From an uncultured Melioribacteraceae bacterium (GTDB lineage Bacteria; Bacteroidota; Ignavibacteria; Ignavibacteriales; Melioribacteraceae), in assembly GCA_964584325.1 (NCBI GenBank), contig CAZOZP010000004.1, positions 3,559-67,558 of the forward strand: a stretch of DNA of 64,000 bases, in the 5' to 3' direction. Numbering within the stretch: position 1 is the stretch's first letter; each line of letters begins with the position of its first letter. A program made the translations under genes and the position numbers. The notes below the pieces were generated by a model, which had not been told where the DNA came from, did not search any database, and saw only the letters and a list, made by a program, of their open reading frames with translations. This document shows positions 2,645 through 52,724 of this stretch, one piece after another.

Positions 2645-4147
2645 ATGTTTTTTAGGCTTGTAATAGTTCTATTTTTAGCAGCTAGTATTTTCTCACAAAC
2701 GAAAACTATCGATGTTTTTATTGATGGTTTAGAATACCGGTTAGTATCATATTTTAACAACGGAATTCATTTTGTTTCGTTAGAAGAATTGGCTGGAAGG
2801 CTAAGCGCAAGATATTACTTTGATGCTGAGTATTCAAGTGCTGAGATCCGGGTATCCGATAAATGCCTCAGGTTTACAGACAAAAACAATTTTGTTGTTT
2901 ATTCTGATAAATCTGATAACCGAAAGATTTTTCAAACAAGTATTGCTCCTTATTTTTCCGGAAGTAATATGTTTATCCCATTGGAAATTCACTTGACAAG
3001 TTTATCAAAAGTTTTTGATAAGACTATTACTTTAAAAAAGATACTTTTGGAAGAACAATCTGCGATAGATACTATAACCGAAAGAATAGATTATAATATA
3101 TCCGAAATACTTATAGATGAAAAAGCTAATGGTACTTTAATCAGGTTAAAAAGCAACAAAAAATCAATAAAACACACCAGCTCTGTTCAAAATGGAATTT
3201 TATTCATTCTATTAAACGATGTTACTGCAAATCCTGATATTTCAAAAGAATTCATACCCAAGGGAATGATTAAAGCATTAAATATTCAAAAAATTGGAAG
3301 TACTACTCAAATTGAATTCGCTCTTAATGAAGGCTACGATTCTCATGAAACATTTAACGATTATTCTTCGAAAGATTTGCTAATCTCAATACATAAAAAT
3401 ATTTTCGGTGAGTATGAGAAACTTTCAGATGAAAAGAATAAATGGATATTCGACTGTGTTGTGATAGATGCAGGGCATGGTGGTAAAGATGCCGGTGCTA
3501 TCGGTATTACAGGAGTTAAAGAAAAAGACATAAATTTGAGTATAGCATTAGAATTAGGTAAACTCATTAATAATAATCTGCCAGATGTAAAAGTTGTATA
3601 TACAAGAAATGATGACAGATTTGTTGAACTTTACAAAAGAGGAAAAATTGCTAACGAAAATAACGGAAAATTATTTATTTCTATTCATTGCAATTCTGTT
3701 AGAAAAAATTCTTCTGCCCAAGGGTTTGAAATATATTTACTGCGTCCTGGTAAAACTCAAGACGCAATAGACATTGCTGAATTTGAAAATAGTGTTATAA
3801 AACTTGAAGATAATCCCGACAGATACAAGAAACTTACTGATGAGAATTTCATATTAGTAACTATGGCACATTCATCTTACTTAAAACACTCGGAGAAGTT
3901 TTCTGATATTCTAAATACAAAATTGTTAGGCCTTTCAGGTATAACTTCCAGAGGAATAAAACAAGCCGGATTCTATGTACTTGTAGGTGCTTCTATGCCG
4001 GGAGTACTGTTTGAAACAGGGTTTATTTCAAATAAAAGCGATGAAAAGTACTTGAAGAGTGCAAAAGGACAAAATGAATTGGCTCTGAAACTTTTTGACG
4101 CTGTAAAAGATTACAAATCTTATTATGATAAAATAATTAAAGACTAA
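2645..4147 (+). CDS. N-acetylmuramoyl-L-alanine amidase (Amidase_3 family) with N-terminal extension
   Basis: VIDAGHGGKDAGAIG ... ISIHCNS ... GFYVL ... PGVLFETGFISN, canonical AmiA/B/C-type catalytic blocks. Signal peptide present. Confidence 0.85.
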   Translation: MFFRLVIVLFLAASIFSQTKTIDVFIDGLEYRLVSYFNNGIHFVSLEELAGRLSARYYFDAEYSSAEIRVSDKCLRFTDKNNFVVYSDKSDNRKIFQTSIAPYFSGSNMFIPLEIHLTSLSKVFDKTITLKKILLEEQSAIDTITERIDYNISEILIDEKANGTLIRLKSNKKSIKHTSSVQNGILFILLNDVTANPDISKEFIPKGMIKALNIQKIGSTTQIEFALNEGYDSHETFNDYSSKDLLISIHKNIFGEYEKLSDEKNKWIFDCVVIDAGHGGKDAGAIGITGVKEKDINLSIALELGKLINNNLPDVKVVYTRNDDRFVELYKRGKIANENNGKLFISIHCNSVRKNSSAQGFEIYLLRPGKTQDAIDIAEFENSVIKLEDNPDRYKKLTDENFILVTMAHSSYLKHSEKFSDILNTKLLGLSGITSRGIKQAGFYVLVGASMPGVLFETGFISNKSDEKYLKSAKGQNELALKLFDAVKDYKSYYDKIIKD

Positions 4148-8157: not shown

Positions 8158-9465
8158 ATGAAATTTGTTTTTTTACTTTTAATATCGATATCATCAATAT
8201 TTTTTTCTCAACCACGAAAGATTGAATACGATAGATTCTCACTTGACAACGGATTAAAGGTTATATTACATCAAGATCATACGACTCCTATTGTTGCTAT
8301 TTCAGTTACTTATCATGTTGGGTCAAAAAATGAACATCCTGATCGTACCGGTTTTGCTCATTTTTTTGAACACTTGATGTTTGAGGGATCAAAATATATT
8401 TCCAGAGGAGAACTTGATGAAATTTTTGAAAATGCCGGAGCTGAATACAATGCATATACAAACCAAGATAAGACTTTTTATTACCAGGTGCTTCCTTCCA
8501 ACCGATTGGAATTAGGACTCTGGATTGAATCTGAAAGAATGCTTCATTTAAAAATTGACAGCATTGGTGTAGAAACTCAGAGAAAAGTTGTTAAAGAGTA
8601 ACGCAAACAAAGTATTGACAATAAACCTTATGGTTCTTTATTTGAAGAAACTTTTAAAAGAGCTTTTAAAGTTCATCCTTATAAATGGACAACAATTGGT
8701 TCTGCTCAGTATATTGATAAGGCTACTATTGATGAATTTACTGAATTCTATAAAACTTATTATGTGCCCGATAATGCTATATTGTCTATAGCCGGTGATA
8801 TTGATATTTCCCAAACAAAAAAACTTATTACAAAATACTTTGCCGCAATACCCTCCGGTAAAATTAATTATACAAGACCCTTGAAGAATGAACCTAAATT
8901 AACAAAAGAAATTCGGGATGTTGTTTACGATAAAATTCAACTTCCTCTTGTTATTTTGGCTTACCGAATACCTGAGCAAAATAGTCCGGATTACTATTCT
9001 TTGGATATGCTTTCCAGAATTTTATCTTCCGGTGAAACTTCCAGATTAAACAAATCTCTCGTTGATAAAAAACAATTGTCAATTTCCTCAGGTTCTTTTC
9101 AATACTCACTGGAACATCCCGGTCTCTTTATTATTTATGCTTTTGCAAATTCAGGAATTAAACCCGAAACTCTGGAAAAAGCAATGGAAGAAGAAATAAA
9201 TACTATAAAAACAAAATTGATTTCTGATTTTGAAACTGAGAAACTAAAAAATCAGATACAAATGGAATTCATTGCTAAAAATTCCACCTTTGCCGGAATT
9301 GCTGAGAATCTGGCTCATTTTGAACTTTTTTTCGGAAATGCTGATTTAATAAACAAAGAAGTTGATATGTATTTAAGTGTTAAACCAGAGGATATAAAGA
9401 ATACAGCTAGTAAATATTTGAATCCCTCAAATCGCGTAGTTTTATACTATTTACCAAAAAAATAG
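8158..9465 (+). pseudogene. Catalytic M16 (pitrilysin-family) zinc peptidase interrupted by one in-frame TAA at 8599-8601
   Basis: HFFEHLMFEGSK (HxxEH zinc motif) lies in ORF 8158-8601. ORF 8764-9465 is in the same frame. Translation straight through the stop reads QRKVVKE*RKQSIDNKPYGSLFEE...HPYKWTTIG...YYVPDNAILSIAGD, which is continuous M16 sequence of about 435 codons. Confidence 0.8.
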
Positions 9466-22851: not shown

Positions 22852-23136
22852 TTAAGCTAAAAATTTTATTTTTTCTATTAAATTTTCATCAAATTTTGTA
22901 TTTATTTTTTCACAAAGTCTTTTCTGAATTATATGAAGTTCATTTCTCCATACAGAATTTTCAACTTTTAAAAAAAGTATTTTTTTTTCAATTTTTACCG
23001 GATTAGCAATTGTCTGTAATTCTGGAAAAATATTAAAGAATTCTTCTATCACTCTATGTTTTTTAACATAAGTATTTATGTTTTCAAAATATTGGCTATT
23101 TAATATATCTGCAACTGACTTAAATGTCTCAGACAT
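22852..23136 (-). CDS. DUF721 (DciA-like) protein
   Basis: 94-aa protein between recF and gyrB, the conserved position of DUF721 genes. Overlaps the recF 3' end by 8 nt. Sequence-level assignment is weak. Confidence 0.5.
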   Translation of the reverse strand: MSETFKSVADILNSQYFENINTYVKKHRVIEEFFNIFPELQTIANPVKIEKKILFLKVENSVWRNELHIIQKRLCEKINTKFDENLIEKIKFLA

Positions 23137-25370: not shown

Positions 25371-25485
25371 ATGATCTCCAAATTGACTATTTAAAATACC
25401 AAAATTTATATAAATTATCAATTTTGTTAACAAATAAGTATTTAAATATATGTTTATTTTAAATATATTGTTTTATTAATACCTA

Positions 25486-25654
25486 TGTTGATATGTTGAT
25501 AACTTTTTATTTGTTTATTATTAAAACAGTTACAAGAATAGTTATTCTATAAAAAATGTTGATAAGTTATTAAGAAAAAAGACTTATTAACATTGTGTTA
25601 ATATTCATTAGTTTATTAACAAGTTATCATCTGGCTTTCAACAGTTTATCAACA
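25486..25654. promoter_or_regulatory. oriC part 1: DnaA-box cluster in the dnaA-dnaN intergenic region
   Basis: TTATCAACA-type 9-mers at 25494-25502(-), 25557-25565(-) and 25646-25654(+). Variants at 25486-25494(-) ATATCAACA and 25624-25632(+) TTATCATCT. Surrounding sequence is strongly AT-rich. Confidence 0.75.
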
Positions 25655-25679
25655 ATAATAATGAACAAAAAAAAGGGAG

Positions 25680-27071
25680 CTAAAAAGCTCCCAACTCAAT
25701 TTTACTCTTAATAGTATCTATTGAATCTTTCAATTTTAAATCATTTAAAACGTCTTCTTCAATTGAATTAATTGCATGAATAACTGTAGAATGATCTCTT
25801 CCACCAAAATGAAGTCCAATAGTTTTTAGAGAAGACTTTGTCATTATTTTAGAAAGATACATTGCAACCATTCTAGCTACGACAACTTCCTTTCTTCTAT
25901 TTTTTTCTCTTACTCTATTTTCTTCAACACAATAATGTTCACAAACAATTTTTGTTATATAATCAATAGAAACATTCATTTTTCTATTAGATGATATATC
26001 TCTAACTGTTTTTCTTGCCATTTCCATATCAATTTCTTTTGAACTAAAATTAGAATTTGCAAGCAGTTTTACAAGACAACCTTCTAATTCTCTTATATTC
26101 GAAGTTATATTATAGGCTATAAACTCGATTATTTCATTATTAAGATTAAATATTCCGAAATTGTCGCACTTATTTTTGAGTATAGCTATTCTTGTTTCAA
26201 AATCAGGTGGCTGAATATCTGCCTGCAGGCCCCACTGAAATCTGGAGGTTAATCTTTCATTCAGTCCTTTAAGTTCTTTAGGAGGCTTATCGCTAGAAAG
26301 AATAATTTGTTTTTCAGCCTGATGAAGTTCATTAAAAATATGAAAGAAATGTTCTTGTGTTTTATCTTTTCCTACAAGAAACTGAATATCATCAATAATC
26401 AGAACATCCATTTTTCTATAAAATGTAGAGAACTCATTTAACTTATTATTCTGTATAGCTTCAACAAATTCCATAGTAAAAGCATCTGAACTTAAATATA
26501 TAATCTTTTTATTTTTATATTTTTCATTGATTTTATTTCCTATTGCATGAAGTAAATGAGTTTTACCTAAACCAACACCTCCATAAACAAAAAATGGATT
26601 AAATGATGTTTCCCCTGGGGATGTTGAAATTGCAACAGCAGCAGCTCTGGCAAGCTGGTTGTTATCACCTTTTATGAAGTTTTCAAATGTGTATTTTGGA
26701 TTAATATAAGATTCATGTTCTGGTTTTTGTTCAACAATGGTAGCGGAAATATTTTTTGAATATATTTCAACATGTTCAGCAATTTCTTCTTGAGATTCAG
26801 AAACTTTGTATGAAATCTCTGCTTCATCTCCTATAATCTTATGAATTGTTTCTTTAATTAGAAAACAGTAATGTTCTTCTATCCATTCAATAAAAAAGCT
26901 GTTTGGGACTTCTACTTTCAATTCATTATCTGTTTTACTAATTGGTTTAATAGGTATAAACCAAGTGTTATAAGTTAATGAGCTTACATTTTCTTTGATA
27001 TGTTCAAGACATTTACGCCAAACTGCATTATGATCTTCTTTAACCATAAAAGTAATTTCTGCCGTCTCCAT
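25680..27071 (-). CDS. dnaA: Chromosomal replication initiator DnaA
   Basis: 463 aa. NPFFVYGGVGLGKTHLLHAIGN Walker A, LIIDDIQFL Walker B, and a C-terminal DNA-binding domain with GGRDHSTVIHA. Confidence 0.97.
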   Translation of the reverse strand: METAEITFMVKEDHNAVWRKCLEHIKENVSSLTYNTWFIPIKPISKTDNELKVEVPNSFFIEWIEEHYCFLIKETIHKIIGDEAEISYKVSESQEEIAEHVEIYSKNISATIVEQKPEHESYINPKYTFENFIKGDNNQLARAAAVAISTSPGETSFNPFFVYGGVGLGKTHLLHAIGNKINEKYKNKKIIYLSSDAFTMEFVEAIQNNKLNEFSTFYRKMDVLIIDDIQFLVGKDKTQEHFFHIFNELHQAEKQIILSSDKPPKELKGLNERLTSRFQWGLQADIQPPDFETRIAILKNKCDNFGIFNLNNEIIEFIAYNITSNIRELEGCLVKLLANSNFSSKEIDMEMARKTVRDISSNRKMNVSIDYITKIVCEHYCVEENRVREKNRRKEVVVARMVAMYLSKIMTKSSLKTIGLHFGGRDHSTVIHAINSIEEDVLNDLKLKDSIDTIKSKIELGAF

Positions 27072-27247
27072 TTTTAGTTATCCACATTATTAAAATTATT
27101 ATTTATTTTTATTATTATTGTAAATTAAAGAACAAAAATGCACAAAATATTAACTTGTAAACTCTTAATTATTGTATAACTTATTGAAATATAATAATAT
27201 ACAAAAAAATTAAAGAATCAAACATAGACTTATATAAAAACATGAAA

Positions 27248-27265
27248 ATGTGAAACGTTTCACAT
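27248..27265. promoter_or_regulatory. Perfect 18-bp palindrome ATGTGAAACGTTTCACAT in oriC
   Basis: Self-complementary on direct reading. Lies 18 nt upstream of the DnaA box at 27284. Confidence 0.6.
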
Positions 27266-27315
27266 GATAAATTTATTAACAAGTTATCAACATATCGTGT
27301 GTATGTCTCATGTGG

Positions 27316-27331
27316 TGTGAAAATATTCACA
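27316..27331. promoter_or_regulatory. TGTGA-N6-TCACA inverted repeat (TGTGAAAATATTCACA) in oriC
   Basis: Arms TGTGAA/TTCACA are identical to the neighbouring palindrome arms. Confidence 0.45.
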
Positions 27332-27700
27332 AAAACAATACATAGCAAATTAAATCTAAATGTTTTTTCTAAGTAGTTAAATTTTATAGAATTAGAATTA
27401 TTACGAGTTAGAAATAATGACAAATAGAATACAATATAAAATCTTAAATAAATATAAAAGTAAATAAATAAAGGTAGTTTAATCTCCTTGTTTATAAAAG
27501 TTATCAACATTATAAAAAAGTCAAAAAGTTCAAATATGAATTGAAATGAAGGAAATGAAAAATTAGAAAAAATTATATTAACATATTATTAACATTAAAT
27601 AAAATTCATAAGACAAGAAAATAAAATAAGATAGCAATAAATCACACAATTAGTAAACAAAGTAGGTAAAAAATATAAAAGAAACAGTATCTTATTAAAA

Positions 27701-27718
27701 ACGTGAAACGTTTCACGT
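27701..27718. promoter_or_regulatory. Perfect 18-bp palindrome ACGTGAAACGTTTCACGT in oriC
   Basis: Self-complementary on direct reading. Lies 19 nt upstream of the DnaA box at 27738. Confidence 0.6.
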
Positions 27719-27840
27719 AATCTCTTATATAAACAAGTTATCAACACTACGAAAAATCAATTTATTTGGAATTTACTAAAAATAAATTGTAGAATTTCAT
27801 ATGTTGAGTATATTATTATGATAAATATTATCGAGGTAAA

Positions 27841-41910: not shown

Positions 41911-43734
41911 ATGCGTTTCATGATATTGTTTTTCTTTTTGACATTAGTTTCTTTTGTTATTGCTCAACATGATTCTATTAATTACAAATTTACATATTAT
42001 AATCCCGCTGCTAAAAAAGTTTCAGTTGCAGGAAGTTTTAACGGCTGGAACGGTATGAAAGATTACATGGAAAACTCACAAAACGGTTATTGGCAATTAA
42101 AAATGAAGTTGCTGCCAGGTTATTATTATTATAAACTTGTTGTTGATGATGAAAAATGGATACCGGATCCAGAGTGTAAAGAAAACATTAATGACGGAGG
42201 TGATAGCTTTAATTCTATAATCAAAGTCGGCAATCCGGCTGTTCCTGAAAGAAAGAAATCTGTTACAGCTTTTCCAAGATATTTACTGCCGGAACCAATA
42301 CTTGAAGAGAATCCGGAGTATATTGATCTATATTATAAAGCATGGGAGCTCGCATGGCAGAAAATTACAGCCGGAAATTCCGGTAACGGTTTTGTTGACT
42401 TTTATATGGATGAAGGTTTCAATGAATGTATTTATCAATGGGATACATCATTTATGGCTGTATTTGCAATGTATGCCTCTGATATCTTTCCGGCAATGCA
42501 GTCTTTAGATAACTTTTATTTAAAACAGTGTGAGGACGGATATATTCAGAGAGTATATAATGAGTCTGACGGTAAAGAAACAGGCTTTAGATCTAAAGAT
42601 GAACCTATGACTAATCCGCCTCTATTTGCACCTATAGAATTAAGATATTATATGCTTACCGGTGATTCTACAAGAATCAGACGTGTATTGCCGGTACTTG
42701 ACAAGTATTACATATGGCTAGAGGATAATTGCCGTATGCCGGAAGGAAAAGGTTTGTATTATCAGACACCTCTTGGAAGCGGAATGGATAACACTCCGAG
42801 AAATGGTGTTAAGTTCGGTGGTTATATTGATATGTCAGCTCAACAGGCTTTGGCTGCAAGATCTATTTCAAAACTATATGAAATTATAGGGGATAAGGAA
42901 AAGTCTTCTGAATTTGCTGAAAAGTATTTAGATATATTTTCTACAATTAATTTGCTTTGCTGGGATGAAAATACGAAATATTACTATGATTTAAGAGACG
43001 ATGGCACTTTATCACCGGTAAAGCATATTGGAGCTTTCTGGACTATCCTTGCGGGTGTGGCATATCCTGAAAGGAAACAACATTTAATTAATCATATAAA
43101 AAATCCTAATGAATTCTATCGCTATCACCTTGTGCCAACATTATCTGCTGATGATATAAATTATAATCCCCGCGGTCATTACTGGAAAGGGGGTGTATGG
43201 GCTCCGACAAATTATATGGTTGTTTGGGGACTTGATGAATTCGGATTTGGAGAGGTTTCACGTGAAATCGCAAAAAATCACATTGAAAATATGTGTAATG
43301 TATTTAAAGAATTTGAGCCTGATGAAAACAAAATTGCATACGATGAGAGATTTGAAGACGGATACAAGACTATTTGGGAATGTTATTCGCCTGAAAAACC
43401 TGAACCGGCCACGCGTTGGGATGATCATTTTTATTCGAGGCAGGATTTTGTCGGATGGTCTGGCTTAGGCCCTATTGCAATGCTGATAGAGAATATCTTA
43501 GGCGTGAGAATATACGGTTATGAGAATAAAGTTGTTTGGAATATAACACGGAACGACCTGCATGGAATTAAAAATATTTCGCTTGGATCATCAAAGATCA
43601 GTGTGGTTTTTGATCCTGCGTCAAATTTGATAAGTACTGAAAGTGAAAAGCCTTTTACTTTGATTGTTAAGAAGGATTCTAGAAGCTATACTTTTGATGT
43701 TGGTATAGGAGTTAATGAATATACCCTTGAGTAA
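41911..43734 (+). CDS. Secreted glycoside hydrolase: N-terminal CBM48/AMPK-beta-like glycogen-binding module plus (alpha/alpha)6 GH63/GH37-like catalytic domain
   Basis: VSVAGSFNGWN...YYYKLVVDDEKWIPDP (CBM48-like). GSGMDNTPR, GGVWAPTNYMVVWGL and WECYSPE resemble trehalase/GH63-type barrels. Confidence 0.6.
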   Translation: MRFMILFFFLTLVSFVIAQHDSINYKFTYYNPAAKKVSVAGSFNGWNGMKDYMENSQNGYWQLKMKLLPGYYYYKLVVDDEKWIPDPECKENINDGGDSFNSIIKVGNPAVPERKKSVTAFPRYLLPEPILEENPEYIDLYYKAWELAWQKITAGNSGNGFVDFYMDEGFNECIYQWDTSFMAVFAMYASDIFPAMQSLDNFYLKQCEDGYIQRVYNESDGKETGFRSKDEPMTNPPLFAPIELRYYMLTGDSTRIRRVLPVLDKYYIWLEDNCRMPEGKGLYYQTPLGSGMDNTPRNGVKFGGYIDMSAQQALAARSISKLYEIIGDKEKSSEFAEKYLDIFSTINLLCWDENTKYYYDLRDDGTLSPVKHIGAFWTILAGVAYPERKQHLINHIKNPNEFYRYHLVPTLSADDINYNPRGHYWKGGVWAPTNYMVVWGLDEFGFGEVSREIAKNHIENMCNVFKEFEPDENKIAYDERFEDGYKTIWECYSPEKPEPATRWDDHFYSRQDFVGWSGLGPIAMLIENILGVRIYGYENKVVWNITRNDLHGIKNISLGSSKISVVFDPASNLISTESEKPFTLIVKKDSRSYTFDVGIGVNEYTLE

Positions 43735-45161: not shown

Positions 45162-45177
45162 TGTTCCACGTGAAACA
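45162..45177. promoter_or_regulatory. parS centromere-like site (perfect TGTTCCACGTGAAACA)
   Basis: Exact match to the 16-bp ParB/Spo0J-binding consensus TGTTNCACGTGAAACA. Intergenic between mnmE and mnmG. Confidence 0.8.
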
Positions 45178-45198: not shown

Positions 45199-45214
45199 TG
45201 TTCCACGTGAAACA
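45199..45214. promoter_or_regulatory. parS centromere-like site, second identical copy
   Basis: Same 16-mer, 37 bp downstream of the first. Both lie inside an 18-bp direct repeat TGTTCCACGTGAAACAGA. Confidence 0.8.
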
Positions 45215-48754: not shown

Positions 48755-49867
48755 ATGAATCAGGAAAAATTCCTTTGGTATAATTCGCGCCGCGATTTAG
48801 TTTTTATACTCGGTGCAGGGGCTTCACACCCTGAAGGAGTACCGCTTCAGAAAGATATAATACCTATCATGTTTTCGGGTGATTATCCGGAAATTGAAAA
48901 CTCGGATTTAGGTAAAAAAGTTCTGGAGTTTATCAGAGAAAATTTTACAATCTCTGAGAAGGAAAACATCTATCCTGAAATGGAAGCAGTATTCGGCTTT
49001 TTGGATTACTTTATTACAGAAAATGAAAGTCTTAATTCAAAATATACATATTCAGCACTAAGAGAAATTAGAGAAGCTCTAATTAAATTGATTCATTATG
49101 TTATAAATCAAAGTTCTGATAAAGTATCGTCTGTTTACAAGGAATTCTGGAGACTCATAGATAACCATAACAGGAACAGTTCGATTATTACACTGAATTA
49201 TGATACAATGCTTGAGCAGTCTTTTGAATTTTTATTTCCGCATAAGGGCCTTATTGATTATTCGATTCATTTTATGAATTTTGAAAAAGATCAAAGACTT
49301 AAAGCATACAACTTCTGGATAAATACAAGAGAACCGATAAAAATTAAAGACAATTCAGAGCCGGTTTCATACAAAATAATAAAACTTCACGGAAGTCTTA
49401 ATTGGAAATACTGTAACTGCTGCAACCAGATTCTTCTGACTCCGTGGGATAGAAAAATTGATCTAAACAAGGGCGAACTGATGGGATATACTTATCCGGA
49501 TAATCAGGAATATGAATTCCGATGTCCGCTCGACGGAACAAGGTTTCAAACGCTGATTGTGCCGCCCTCTCTGATTAAACCTCTTAAGCATCCTTCAATA
49601 TCTTTTCTGCTAAATGAGGCATCCAAGGAAATAAGAAGTGCAAAGAAAATAGTATTTATCGGTTATTCACTTTCTATAGCAGATGTTCACATTAAAGCAT
49701 TGCTAAAGAAAAATCTTAATCCTGCAACTGAAGTGATTGCGGTAAATCTTCAGAACACACCAACGCTTAAATCAAGATATCAAGAAATTAAAGGTGATAT
49801 TCATTGGATTAACAGCTCATTTGAAGAAATGATATCCGATGGGAAACTCATTGACAAAATATTTTGA
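48755..49867 (+). CDS. SIR2-like (sirtuin-superfamily) protein, standalone
   Basis: FILGAGASHPEGVP (GAGxS), TLNYDTMLE (NxD), KLHGSLNW (catalytic His). Four Cys (CNCC...RCP) are placed like a sirtuin Zn module. Also has FIGYSLSIADVH. Confidence 0.65.
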   Translation: MNQEKFLWYNSRRDLVFILGAGASHPEGVPLQKDIIPIMFSGDYPEIENSDLGKKVLEFIRENFTISEKENIYPEMEAVFGFLDYFITENESLNSKYTYSALREIREALIKLIHYVINQSSDKVSSVYKEFWRLIDNHNRNSSIITLNYDTMLEQSFEFLFPHKGLIDYSIHFMNFEKDQRLKAYNFWINTREPIKIKDNSEPVSYKIIKLHGSLNWKYCNCCNQILLTPWDRKIDLNKGELMGYTYPDNQEYEFRCPLDGTRFQTLIVPPSLIKPLKHPSISFLLNEASKEIRSAKKIVFIGYSLSIADVHIKALLKKNLNPATEVIAVNLQNTPTLKSRYQEIKGDIHWINSSFEEMISDGKLIDKIF

Positions 49868-49873
49868 CATTTA

Positions 49874-49891
49874 TGTAATCTAATGATTACA
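49874..49891. promoter_or_regulatory. Inverted repeat TGTAATC-TAAT-GATTACA upstream of the PadR-like gene (candidate operator or weak terminator)
   Basis: 7-bp arms read directly. Located 7 nt after the SIR2-like stop and about 80 nt before the PadR-like start. No T-run. Confidence 0.3.
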
Positions 49892-49973
49892 AGATAGTCC
49901 ATAAAAATCTTAAAAACATTGTCATAATACAATTGCACAGTATTTGATAAATATTTAAAAAATAATTACAATT

Positions 49974-50537
49974 ATGATATCAAAACTCGGCATTATAGTT
50001 TTAGGCATCCTCTACGAAAGCAATAGTTCTTTCGACGACCTCTCTGAAATGATAGATGATTTAAATATCGGGAAAATATTTCCGGTGAACGATTCAATTC
50101 TGAATATTGCCCTTAAAAAACTTATTAAAGACGGATTGATTGAATTGGATGATTTCAGCGAGCCCAAAACATTTAATATCACCAATGCAGGCAAGCAGAT
50201 ATTGTTTGAATCAATTTCATTGATTTTGGATTATAACAATATCGACTCTATAGGTTTCGATATCGGAATACTTCTTATGAATAAACTTGGCCGTACGGAA
50301 TGTAATTTTTATTCCAAACTGAGATTGGAAAAACTTGAAGGCGAATATTTTAATCTTAAAAATCAGGTCTTCTATACAGAATACAATAAAGAAATTCCTT
50401 ACTCTAAAATGGCAGTGCTGAAACATAAATTATATCAGCTTGAAGCAGAAATAAAAATAGTTAAGGATTTGATTCGTGAAATTAACAAATCCGGACCGAA
50501 TAAACACACCAACATCTTCCGACTTAAAACCGGCTGA
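49974..50537 (+). CDS. PadR-like winged-helix transcriptional regulator with C-terminal helical domain
   Basis: LGIIVLGILYE...SILNIALKKLIKDGLIE...FNITNAGKQ resembles the PadR wHTH layout. Coiled-coil-like C-terminus. Confidence 0.5.
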   Translation: MISKLGIIVLGILYESNSSFDDLSEMIDDLNIGKIFPVNDSILNIALKKLIKDGLIELDDFSEPKTFNITNAGKQILFESISLILDYNNIDSIGFDIGILLMNKLGRTECNFYSKLRLEKLEGEYFNLKNQVFYTEYNKEIPYSKMAVLKHKLYQLEAEIKIVKDLIREINKSGPNKHTNIFRLKTG

Positions 50538-50583
50538 AAAGTGTAAATAATTTTGTAAATTTGAATTCACAAATTATTTCATT

Positions 50584-51300
50584 ATGTCAATATCAAATAG
50601 TGTCTTACTACCCGGAACCGAACAGCAGCTGAAGTTCCTGATTAATCATATTGATCCTGCAGCAATCGGAAAGGTTTTAATTGCAGGTGCATCTTCTGAA
50701 ACAATCGGCCTAAAACTCAAAAACTATGGAATCAGGGAAATCGATATTGTTGTCGAAGATTATGATTCATTGATGAATTCTAATCTTGTGATAGATGGAG
50801 TTTCAGGTCTGCAGGTCAAAATGATGGATCTTACTAATACAGATTACCGTGGCCGGATATTCAGCTTGATTTATTCTCAAGGCGGTACGGGCAACATTCG
50901 CCGTAACAAAATTATGAAGGAGTTTAGTAAAATAATGCTTCCTGACGGAATTTTGTGTTTAGGAGAAATTACGCTGAAAAGAAAGGATATTCCGCAATTT
51001 GTAAAAGATATATTCGATACATCAGGAATACTTCCGCTTTTACCTGAAGACCTTTCAGAGTTTTATTCTAAGCATTTTGAGGTAATCGAAGCAGTTGATC
51101 TTTCAGATACACTTAAGGATTATTATGCTTTAAGTAAAGACCGATTGAAGCTTTCATTAAAGGAAATGAATGATAATGAACGGCAGTATATGAAAACCGT
51201 TATCAAACAAATTAAACACGAAGCCGACTCTTATCTCAAACACGGAGCCGACAAGTTTATAGGCTTCACTGCAGCATTATTAAGGAAAAAGGCCTCTTGA
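50584..51300 (+). CDS. Class I SAM-dependent methyltransferase-like protein (atypical motif I)
   Basis: VLIAGASSE...EIDIVVEDYD...MLPDGILCLGE follows the Rossmann MTase order. The glycine-rich loop is degenerate (AGASS). Confidence 0.5.
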   Translation: MSISNSVLLPGTEQQLKFLINHIDPAAIGKVLIAGASSETIGLKLKNYGIREIDIVVEDYDSLMNSNLVIDGVSGLQVKMMDLTNTDYRGRIFSLIYSQGGTGNIRRNKIMKEFSKIMLPDGILCLGEITLKRKDIPQFVKDIFDTSGILPLLPEDLSEFYSKHFEVIEAVDLSDTLKDYYALSKDRLKLSLKEMNDNERQYMKTVIKQIKHEADSYLKHGADKFIGFTAALLRKKAS

Positions 51301-52724
51301 AAAAAAAAGATATAATAGAACTTGAGATTACAGATTATGCCTTTGAGGGTAAAGGAATTGCAAAAATTCAAATAGGTGAAAGCGAATCAAAATTTGTGAT
51401 TTTTGTTGATAAAACCTATCCCGGTGATGTTGTTAAAGCAGAAATCCAGAAAAAGAAAAAGTCTTACGCAGAAGCGGTAATTTCCGAATTCGTAAAAAAA
51501 TCAGAAATGAGAACAGCTGCAAAATGCCGCTACTTCGGAGTTTGCGGGGGATGTAAACAGCAGGACCTTTCATACGAAGCTCAAACCGGGTATAAAAAGA
51601 AACAGACTGTTGAAAATCTTGAAAAGATCGGAGCCCAGGATAACTTTGAGATTCAGGATATTGTTCCTTCAGAAGATATATTCTATTACCGCAACAAAAT
51701 GGAGTATTCTTTCTGCGACAGGCGCTGGCTCACTTCCGATGAAATGCTCAAGGATATATCAGAAGAGGATAAAAACTTTGCTCTTGGTCTTCATATTCCA
51801 AAATACTACAGCAAGGTTCTGGATGTTGAAGAATGTTTTCTTCAATCCGAAATAAGTAACAGAATTCTGAATTTTACAAGAAGTTTTTTCAAAAACAGAA
51901 ATGTTACAATTTATAATAATAATTCTGATTCGGGTTATTTAAGAAATCTGGTAATTCGCCAGTCTTATAACAGAAAAGACTTGATGGTAAATCTTGTTAC
52001 ATCTGAGTATGATGAAGCCTTAACAGAAGAATATACAAGCCGGATGATGATGGAAATACCTGAGATTACAACGGTTGTCAATAATATAAATACTAAAAAG
52101 GCACTCATAGCATTCGGAGAGTACGAGAAAGTTATAAGAGGCAACGGTTATATTTTTGATGAAATCGGCGAGAAAGTTTTCAGAATAAGTGCCAATTCAT
52201 TCTTCCAGACAAATACTAAGCAGGCGGGAAAGCTTTATTCTGCAATTAATGAATTTGCAGAGCCTTCGGAAAATGATATTGTTTATGACTTATTTTCAGG
52301 TGCTGGTACAATTTCAATCTATATTTCAAATAAAGTTAAATATGTTTACGGCTTCGAGTCAGTAACTCAAGCAGTAAGAGATGCGGGTGTGAATTCAGAA
52401 TTAAATAAAAGCGATAACCTCAGATTTTTTGAAGCCGACTTAAACAAATCCTTCTTAGGTAAAATTCGTGAAAATAACATTCCCAAACCCGATATAATCA
52501 TTACTGATCCTCCGCGCGCAGGAATGAATCCTAATACTATTTCCGATATACTGGAATTAAATCCCAGGAAAATTGTGTATGTAAGCTGTAATCCTGCAAC
52601 TCAGGCAAGAGATATAAAATTGCTGACTGAATCAGGTAATTACAATCTGATAAAAATCAGACCGGTTGATATGTTTCCGCATACATTTCATATCGAGAAT
52701 GTTGCTCTGCTAATAAGAAAATAA
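51297..52724 (+). CDS. rlmD: 23S rRNA (uracil-C5)-methyltransferase, RlmD/RumA family, with TRAM domain and Fe-S Cys cluster
   Basis: N-terminal TRAM (ELEITDYAFEGKGIAK), CRYFGVCGGC, FFQTN, DLFSGAGT, DPPRAG and YVSCNPATQARD. TTG start overlaps the upstream stop. Confidence 0.85.
   Translation: MKKKDIIELEITDYAFEGKGIAKIQIGESESKFVIFVDKTYPGDVVKAEIQKKKKSYAEAVISEFVKKSEMRTAAKCRYFGVCGGCKQQDLSYEAQTGYKKKQTVENLEKIGAQDNFEIQDIVPSEDIFYYRNKMEYSFCDRRWLTSDEMLKDISEEDKNFALGLHIPKYYSKVLDVEECFLQSEISNRILNFTRSFFKNRNVTIYNNNSDSGYLRNLVIRQSYNRKDLMVNLVTSEYDEALTEEYTSRMMMEIPEITTVVNNINTKKALIAFGEYEKVIRGNGYIFDEIGEKVFRISANSFFQTNTKQAGKLYSAINEFAEPSENDIVYDLFSGAGTISIYISNKVKYVYGFESVTQAVRDAGVNSELNKSDNLRFFEADLNKSFLGKIRENNIPKPDIIITDPPRAGMNPNTISDILELNPRKIVYVSCNPATQARDIKLLTESGNYNLIKIRPVDMFPHTFHIENVALLIRK

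Follow-up and report, generated by a model that had tools for sequence, protein, structure and literature searches.

Everted half-parS heptamers at a fixed distance from tandem DnaA boxes upstream of dnaA in Ignavibacteria, a possible docking site for ParB

Which protein reads the palindromes that stand beside DnaA boxes upstream of dnaA is the question raised by this locus. In the 64-kb stretch of DNA that was analysed as a whole (the window), the 14-mer GTGAAACGTTTCAC occurs in two copies, both upstream of dnaA. The proximal core GTGAAAC|GTTTCAC (27250..27263, no strand) consists of everted half-parS heptamers and lies 192 bp 5' of the dnaA ATG, and the distal core of the same sequence (27703..27716, no strand) is found 453 bp from it, which agrees with the palindrome-plus-box unit duplicated about 450 bp apart in the preliminary description. 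When up to two mismatches were allowed, the same two places were the only matches in the 64 kb, against an expectation of 0.19, and none of 100 shuffles reached two copies. Perfect GTGAA-N4-TTCAC occurs three times in the window, all inside one 769-bp spacer. A sequence check located the two 18-bp palindromes reported before, ATGTGAAACGTTTCACAT (27248-27265) and ACGTGAAACGTTTCACGT (27701-27718), as well as a third related site, TGTGAAAATATTCACA (27316-27331), at the positions given for them.

The DnaA boxes next to the palindromes are organized in pairs. The modules AACAAGTTATCAACA (27278-27292 and 27732-27746) had been described as one DnaA box per palindrome; that box is present, and its gap to the 18-mer is indeed 18 nt at the proximal and 19 nt at the distal copy (measured to TTATCAACA), but each palindrome is actually flanked by two tandem boxes. 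The proximal pair, TGTTGATAA-ct-TGTTAATAA in the dnaA direction with an 11-bp phase (27273..27292, minus strand), is formed by boxes 27273-27281 and 27284-27292 and is separated from the palindrome core by 9 nt. The distal pair, TGTTGATAA-ct-TGTTTATAT (27727..27746, minus strand), lies 10 nt from the distal core, and its boxes are 27738-27746 and 27727-27735, the second of which is degenerate. As for the third site, it does exist at its position, but it is palindromic in the window only and overlaps a promoter-like -7 element. We therefore treat its palindromy as incidental, since it is seen in the window alone in an alignment of 18 taxa.

The gene dnaA (25680..27071, minus strand; TIGR00362, 538 bits) is separated from a divergent epimerase gene by the spacer 27072-27840, and dnaA, dnaN, recF, dciA, gyrB and gyrA are all located on the minus strand. 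The cumulative GC skew has its minimum in the dnaA-epimerase spacer, and perfect DnaA boxes cluster in two places, this upstream spacer and the dnaA-dnaN spacer. A consensus DnaA box, TGTGGATAA (27078..27086, minus strand), is located directly before the dnaA start codon and is conserved in all relatives. Besides, a promoter-like block composed of AAATTTAATTTGC, 20 nt and TATTTTCA (27318..27360, minus strand, that is, the dnaA direction) was recognized from its footprint in the 18 taxa and from the Chlorobaculum consensus, and it overlaps the third site (27316-27331). In Chlorobaculum, dRNA-seq gave the RpoD promoter pattern TTG-N17-23-TA[ATC][ATC][AT]T (Chlorobi/Bacteroidota), which is fitted by the AAATTTAATTTGC/TATTTTCA block, so that we infer a putative promoter from its letters. 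The composite box-palindrome module lies about 50 bp downstream of this block, and if the promoter assignment is right, the module would occupy roughly +15 to +60 relative to the dnaA transcript start.

The second cluster of boxes, in the dnaA-dnaN spacer (25434..25679, no strand), is a candidate for an alternative or partner origin segment. It contains four perfect boxes (25494, 25557, 25646), five one-mismatch boxes including that at 25486, and an AT-rich tract at 25442-25481, while no palindrome, heptamer or TTTCAC element was found in this spacer and box cluster of the window. The palindromes had been placed in oriC. For the upstream spacer, the DnaA-box cluster at the skew switch beside dnaA, by which an oriC is recognized, speaks for this placement, but the same spacer carries the conserved promoter-like block and a second box cluster exists between dnaA and dnaN; oriC may be the upstream spacer, the dnaA-dnaN spacer, or both.

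Two AT-rich minima, 27088-27127 and 25442-25481, each stand beside a DnaA box, and neither is conserved in sequence across the relatives of the 18-taxon alignment. No 40-mer of the region is less stable than the former, which follows immediately on the 3' side of the TTATCCACA box abutting the dnaA start; on the TTATCCACA strand this 40-mer begins TTA TTA AAA TTA TTA. At 25442-25502, overlapping boxes TTATCAACATATCAACA are followed by TAG GTA TTA ATA and then by a very AT-rich 40-mer, which looks like a box-plus-trio unwinding arrangement just 5' of dnaN. A place for the palindrome itself in a DnaA-trio or unwinding system was rejected, as it stands 5' of TTATCAACA and trios, by the R1-DUE geometry of E. 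coli, belong on the other side. The gene order dnaA-dnaN-recF-dciA-gyrB is kept in most relatives, and the 94-aa ORF between recF and gyrB in the window (22852-23136, minus strand) is DciA (PF05258), a helicase-loading factor. In three Melioribacteraceae-type loci (L161, L165 and L167; dnaA 3001 to ~4410), a photolyase or GH20 gene follows dnaA instead of dnaN; the spacer 3' of dnaA has no DnaA boxes there, and the upstream module is intact.

By its DnaA protein the window belongs to the Ignavibacteria (Ignavibacteriales/Melioribacteraceae). To see how far the module is shared, dnaA loci were drawn from species-representative genomes, metagenomes and contigs encoding specific DnaA homologues, including the cultured Rosettibacter firmus. 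With the window and 19 relatives, the set comprised 20 Ignavibacteria-type dnaA loci and 22 sites, in which DnaA is 53-68% identical to that of the window. It turned out that the module is present in every Ignavibacteria-type locus with enough upstream sequence (20 of 20 taxa; 22 sites). Its order in the dnaA direction is TGTTRATAA, 2 nt, TGTKRATAA (tandem boxes in an 11-bp register), a spacer and the palindrome, which starts about 190-270 bp before the dnaA ATG in the 20 taxa. Of the 22 sites in these taxa, 21 have a spacer of exactly 9 nt between box and palindrome, which bears out the fixed phasing with DnaA boxes that had been proposed from the window; both the motif and its spacing are conserved in all 19 relatives, so that the absence or loss of phasing in relatives, named beforehand as a refutation, was not seen. 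Nor is the motif common elsewhere in the DNA compared. No other copy exists in the 64-kb window, and GTGAAA-N1-5-TTTCAC has no other occurrence in the first 160 dnaA-flanking loci (1.69 Mb, many phyla). The palindrome is absent from locus L006 (52% DnaA identity) and from all more distant loci.

In the 18-taxon alignment, the upstream spacer is unconserved and unalignable except for discrete blocks. These are AAATTTAATTTGC, 19-20 nt and TATTTTCA, ending about 27 nt 5' of the first box; another tandem pair of boxes, about 96 bp before the ATG; and the consensus box just 5' of the ATG. The upstream DnaA boxes have the same orientation throughout. A literature search found no papers for the exact 14-mer and nothing relevant for an Ignavibacterium oriC; half-parS sites and origin-binding regulators are both known, but we know of no conserved everted pair that is locked to DnaA boxes.

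The invariant unit of the palindrome is the 14-mer, not a 16- or 18-mer, for the base after CAC is A in 11, G in 9 and T in 2 of 22 sites. The exact GTGAAACGTTTCAC is found in 14 sites. The others are GTGAAAC|GTTCCAC in L171 and L172, GTGGAAC|GTTCCAC with a change in both arms in L164, GTGGAAACGTTTCAC in L084, and GTGAAAA-N-GTTTCAC with one added central base in L083, L002, L003 and L004. In L004 (the same as L085 and L086; Ignavibacteriaceae genome CP129491), three direct GTTTCAC and one GTTTCAA follow the palindrome at 3752-3796 in exact 10-nt phase, which is a local expansion of the heptamer.

The arms of this palindrome are those of the centromere site parS. Two identical copies of the canonical parS TGTTCCACGTGAAACA, whose presence at about 45.2 kb had been noted before, were located at 45162-45177 and 45199-45214 (no strand), 37 bp apart and filling the short mnmE-mnmG spacer. 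Their arms, GTTCCAC and GTTTCAC, are those used by the palindrome family, and the preliminary description was right in reading the palindromes as the two parS half-sites joined in everted order, the matching arms in relatives varying as GTTTCAC/GTTCCAC only. In a test with these two heptamers, the right arm reads GTT[T/C]CAC at all 22 sites and the left arm does so at 17 of them. Among the matching arms, heptamer position 4 is the sole one to vary, with C in place of T. The change arose in one arm in L171/L172 and in both arms in L164, independently in either arm, and position 4 is the very one that differs between the arms of the window's own parS. All 22 sites have G1 in the right arm and A6 in each arm; G1 and A6 are the bases that separate ParB from Noc specificity. 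The palindrome is not itself a parS centromere (TGTTNCAC|GTGAAACA in inverted order), as all 22 sites have everted arms. It shares with canonical parS (TGTTNCACGTGAAACA) the same 7-bp arms and an origin-proximal position, with the two parS of the window 18 kb away, and differs from it in that the G1 ends meet at the dyad, whereas the C7 ends do so in parS. Besides, a degenerate parS-like palindrome, GGTTTCACGTGAAATC (43254-43269; 3 mismatches), is found inside a 607-aa glycoside-hydrolase-like ORF (41911-43734).

Binding of ParB to single heptamers is documented in other bacteria. The ParB of Pseudomonas aeruginosa binds GTTCCAC and GTTTCAC in vivo at hundreds of sites without spreading, with a peak upstream of dnaA and with a half-site rule in which G1, T3, C5 and A6 are strict and position 4 is free (PMC5961200; PMC10419367), and this binding is independent of CTP-pocket residues and C-terminal dimerisation (Kawalek et al. 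2018, PMC5961200; 2023, PMC10419367). The ability depends on the species: several other ParBs show half-site binding, and those of B. subtilis, V. cholerae, C. glutamicum and S. coelicolor do not. The Ignavibacteria element resembles the half-parS sites of P. aeruginosa in its identical heptamers, in having T or C at position 4 and in a site upstream of dnaA. In contrast to the hundreds of scattered sites of unclear function there, its heptamers form a fixed everted pair with 1-2 copies per locus, 9 nt from tandem boxes, and the element is conserved in the lineage, its binding by ParB being putative. Direct ParB-DnaA contacts have been reported in D. radiodurans and V. cholerae. According to a study cited in PMC5961200, ParB2 binds a half-parS in the chromosome-2 origin region of Vibrio cholerae and influences initiation. 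If ParB is the binder here, the two systems would share a ParB protein and a half-site in replication-control DNA; the Vibrio system differs in its RctB initiator, its secondary chromosome, its single half-site and its phylum.

On these grounds the reading that we tentatively put first is that the palindrome is a static ParB docking site which may act with DnaA on dnaA transcription or origin function. The composite element consists of the back-to-back half-parS heptamers (GTTTCAC) and the tandem DnaA-box pair, and the heptamers would be bound by ParB helix-turn-helix domains in the non-sliding half-parS mode of P. aeruginosa. Since the everted arms point the wrong way, no closure of the ParB clamp is expected. 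Measured from the palindrome dyad, the centres of the nearer and the farther box are, by computation, about 20.5 and 31.5 bp away; as these distances are two and three helical turns, all three sites lie on the same face of the DNA. Placed beside DnaA, ParB might co-repress or block dnaA transcription, or modulate the assembly of the DnaA oligomer on the box cluster, directly or through ParA, and such a dock would couple segregation status to initiation. The tolerance of an extra central base and the repeats of L004 fit monomers that dock independently on a flexible linker rather than a rigid dimer. Both binding and regulation by ParB are what we infer from the identity of the arms with the parS heptamer. 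An unknown origin-binding factor, as first proposed for the palindromes, may accordingly be too strong a term: the idea of a factor beside DnaA stands, and a known protein, ParB, is now the leading candidate.

Several observations limit the confidence in a ParB dock. A GERRxRA motif search of the window and of all fetched loci gave no parB, and a ParB can therefore be presumed solely from the two parS sites. In the window, rsmG is not followed by parA/parB, and the next gene encodes a MurQ-type etherase. In the relatives with an extra central base (L083, L002, L003 and L004), the left arm is TTTTCAC and G1, which is strictly required by P. aeruginosa ParB, is lost. Single heptamers elsewhere in the window number 11, compared with 10.2 +/- 3.3 expected, and at this expected frequency there is no sign of genome-wide selection on them; no enrichment of the half-parS heptamer upstream of dnaA was seen in other phyla either (0.07 vs 0.12 per kb). 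Moreover, the palindrome element is limited to one lineage though ParB and DnaA are universal, which weighs against ParB.

This restriction to Ignavibacteria favours instead an operator for a lineage-specific regulator other than ParB, such as a response regulator or another helix-turn-helix protein, which would bind beside DnaA and control dnaA transcription or initiation, with the likeness to parS arms being coincidental. We consider such a regulator nearly as likely as the ParB dock. The GTGAAA/TTTCAC hexamers are kept also in those sites whose left arm lacks the G1 critical for ParB, and there is a precedent in dedicated origin-DNA binders such as HP1021, which binds short boxes beside DnaA boxes in oriC2 of Helicobacter pylori, part of a bipartite origin flanking dnaA (PMC8266642). 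The palindrome is like the HP1021 boxes as a candidate non-DnaA binding site adjoining DnaA boxes near dnaA; unlike it, HP1021 boxes are not palindromic pairs at fixed spacing, and HP1021 is a Helicobacter-specific response regulator, no homologue of which was identified here. Against a regulator of this kind stand the 7/7 identity with the parS arm and the same tolerated substitution, the chance of which is about 6 x 10^-5 per heptamer before multiple comparisons, and the finding that none of the loci has a regulator gene linked to the site.

The copies in the window agree with consensus patterns of the CRP, Rex and Cra/LacI type as well, which counts for a regulator, but every specific family tested fails at the orthologous sites (outer T/A; N6/N7 and N4/N5; central CG). 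The patterns are TGTGA-N6-TCACA for CRP/FNR, TTGTGAA-N4-TTCACAA for Rex, and those of the Cra/LacI type. The proximal and third sites of the window match both the CRP/FNR and the Rex pattern exactly, whereas the orthologous sites have free outer bases, an invariant centre and a 1-bp change of spacing. The CRP/FNR reading, one of the two put forward in the preliminary description, does fit the copies in the window and was nevertheless abandoned, because the orthologous sites break its rules of outer bases, free spacer and fixed N6. The outer T/A is not conserved (A 11, G 9, T 2 in 22 sites), the 14 exact-core sites all have the same AACGTT where a free spacer would be expected, and N7 occurs in L083, L002, L003 and L004. 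Among the window ORFs scanned, no CRP/FNR regulator gene was found. Rex was rejected as its outer TT/AA is not conserved and four relatives have N5 against a fixed N4. For LacI/Cra, the window core contains TGAAACGTTTCA, but the central CG is absent in L002 (AGG), L003 (ATG) and L004 (AAG).

It is less probable, and in our estimate unlikely, that DnaA itself binds the arms as back-to-back low-affinity non-canonical boxes with a TTCAC core, extending the complex from the tandem boxes. The arms fit the relaxed E. coli box TTWTNCACA at about positions 3-9 and not at 1-2, the left arms of the relatives with an extra central base match it at 8 of 9 positions, and the TTCAC core (positions 4-8) both defines the DnaA boxes of Epsilonproteobacteria and is recognized by E. 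coli DnaA. The further GTTTCAC copies of L004 at 10-nt phase are also like an array of weak boxes. On the other hand, the arms fail the organism's own DnaA-box consensus TTAT[C/T]AACA (positions 2, 3, 6 and 9). When 44 boxes (TTAT[C/T]AACA) were compared with 44 arms (nGTT[T/C]CACn), two discrete classes without intermediates were obtained: position 2 is T in 43 of 44 boxes and G in 39 of 44 arms, position 3 is A or G in boxes and T in all 44 arms, position 6 is A in 39 of 44 boxes and C in all 44 arms, and position 9 is A in boxes and free in arms. The left arm does not keep the 11-bp register of the tandem boxes, as it begins 17 bp past box 2, and the lack of a TTTCAC element in the window's dnaA-dnaN box cluster is a further point against DnaA.

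A structural element, either a cruciform or hairpin in origin DNA or an attenuator or terminator hairpin in the dnaA-leader RNA, is very improbable: although the palindrome folds (6-9 bp stem, 3-4 nt loop, -4 to -9 kcal/mol), its distal copy was flagged as terminator-like by a scan, its centre varies as a loop would, the L164 change is symmetric in both arms and the module is probably downstream of a promoter, the stems are weak at -4.5 to -5.7 kcal/mol, their sequence is invariant without covariation, the L171/L172 change (GTGAAAC|GTTCCAC) is uncompensated, no more than about half of the taxa have a T-run after the stem, the distal copies of the window and L001 have no equivalent promoter block upstream, and no Rfam match was found at E <= 1. 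A terminator, hairpin or structured RNA was thus rejected for its weak stems, unconserved T-run, uncompensated change and lack of an Rfam match.

The duplication of the cassette suggests where the module may act. The whole cassette, in which tandem boxes and palindrome are followed after 152 bp by a further tandem pair and after 85 bp more by a single box, is present twice in the window and in L001/L081, and once in the other 18 taxa; in L001/L081 the distal palindrome is 455 bp from its proximal copy. In the distal cassette of the window, the second tandem pair TGTTAATAA-ta-TGTTAATAT (27575..27594, minus strand) lies 152 bp from the distal module, the same spacing as that of the tandem pair about 96 bp 5' of the ATG in relatives, and the single box TGTTGATAA is at 27501..27509 (minus strand). 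The cassette spacings are 207 and 246 bp in the window and 208 and 247 bp in L001, while the sequence between the cassette elements is unalignable between the two. A recent duplication or a mobile element was rejected on this combination of near-identical spacings and unalignable flanks, and the unalignable flanks argue that the duplication is old and that both copies have been maintained by selection on the protein-binding elements. A maintained duplicate without a promoter comparable to that of the proximal copy suggests an extra role at the DNA level, that is, an origin-type DnaA complex.

Elsewhere in the window, a possible defence island (48755-52724) encodes a SIR2-like protein, which weakly matches SIR2 models associated with defence, followed by two ORFs without family match and a 475-aa protein that matches 'mad2' weakly. 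In a peptidase M16, the N-terminal and the C-terminal domain are found on separate ORFs (8158-8601 and 8764-9465) 160 bp apart, and this gene may be disrupted or mis-assembled.

In conclusion, a palindrome of everted half-parS heptamers accompanies tandem DnaA boxes upstream of dnaA throughout the Ignavibacteria loci collected here. The module is a practical marker of the dnaA control region or origin in metagenome-assembled Ignavibacteria genomes. Besides, it provides a clean natural test case, being conserved and single-copy with a fixed geometry; the DNA is a defined 60 bp, both proteins are universal, and there are relatives in culture. Should a protein other than ParB bind there, the module would still point to an undescribed factor, shared by the whole lineage, that sits a set distance away from DnaA. 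Should ParB be a working part of the module, this would be the first case of a half-parS site whose function is both defined and conserved. To our knowledge, a mechanism of communication between ParABS and DnaA is known only through Soj in Bacillus. The conserved pairing suggests that replication control is hard-wired to ParB, the segregation protein. With still more reserve than for the docking site, we suggest that in Ignavibacteria ParB might be a fixed structural part of the dnaA control region or origin, where two of its DNA-binding domains would sit on the everted half-parS pair one helical turn beyond a DnaA dimer, and that this non-sliding, DNA-templated complex could tie initiation, or the supply of DnaA, to segregation.
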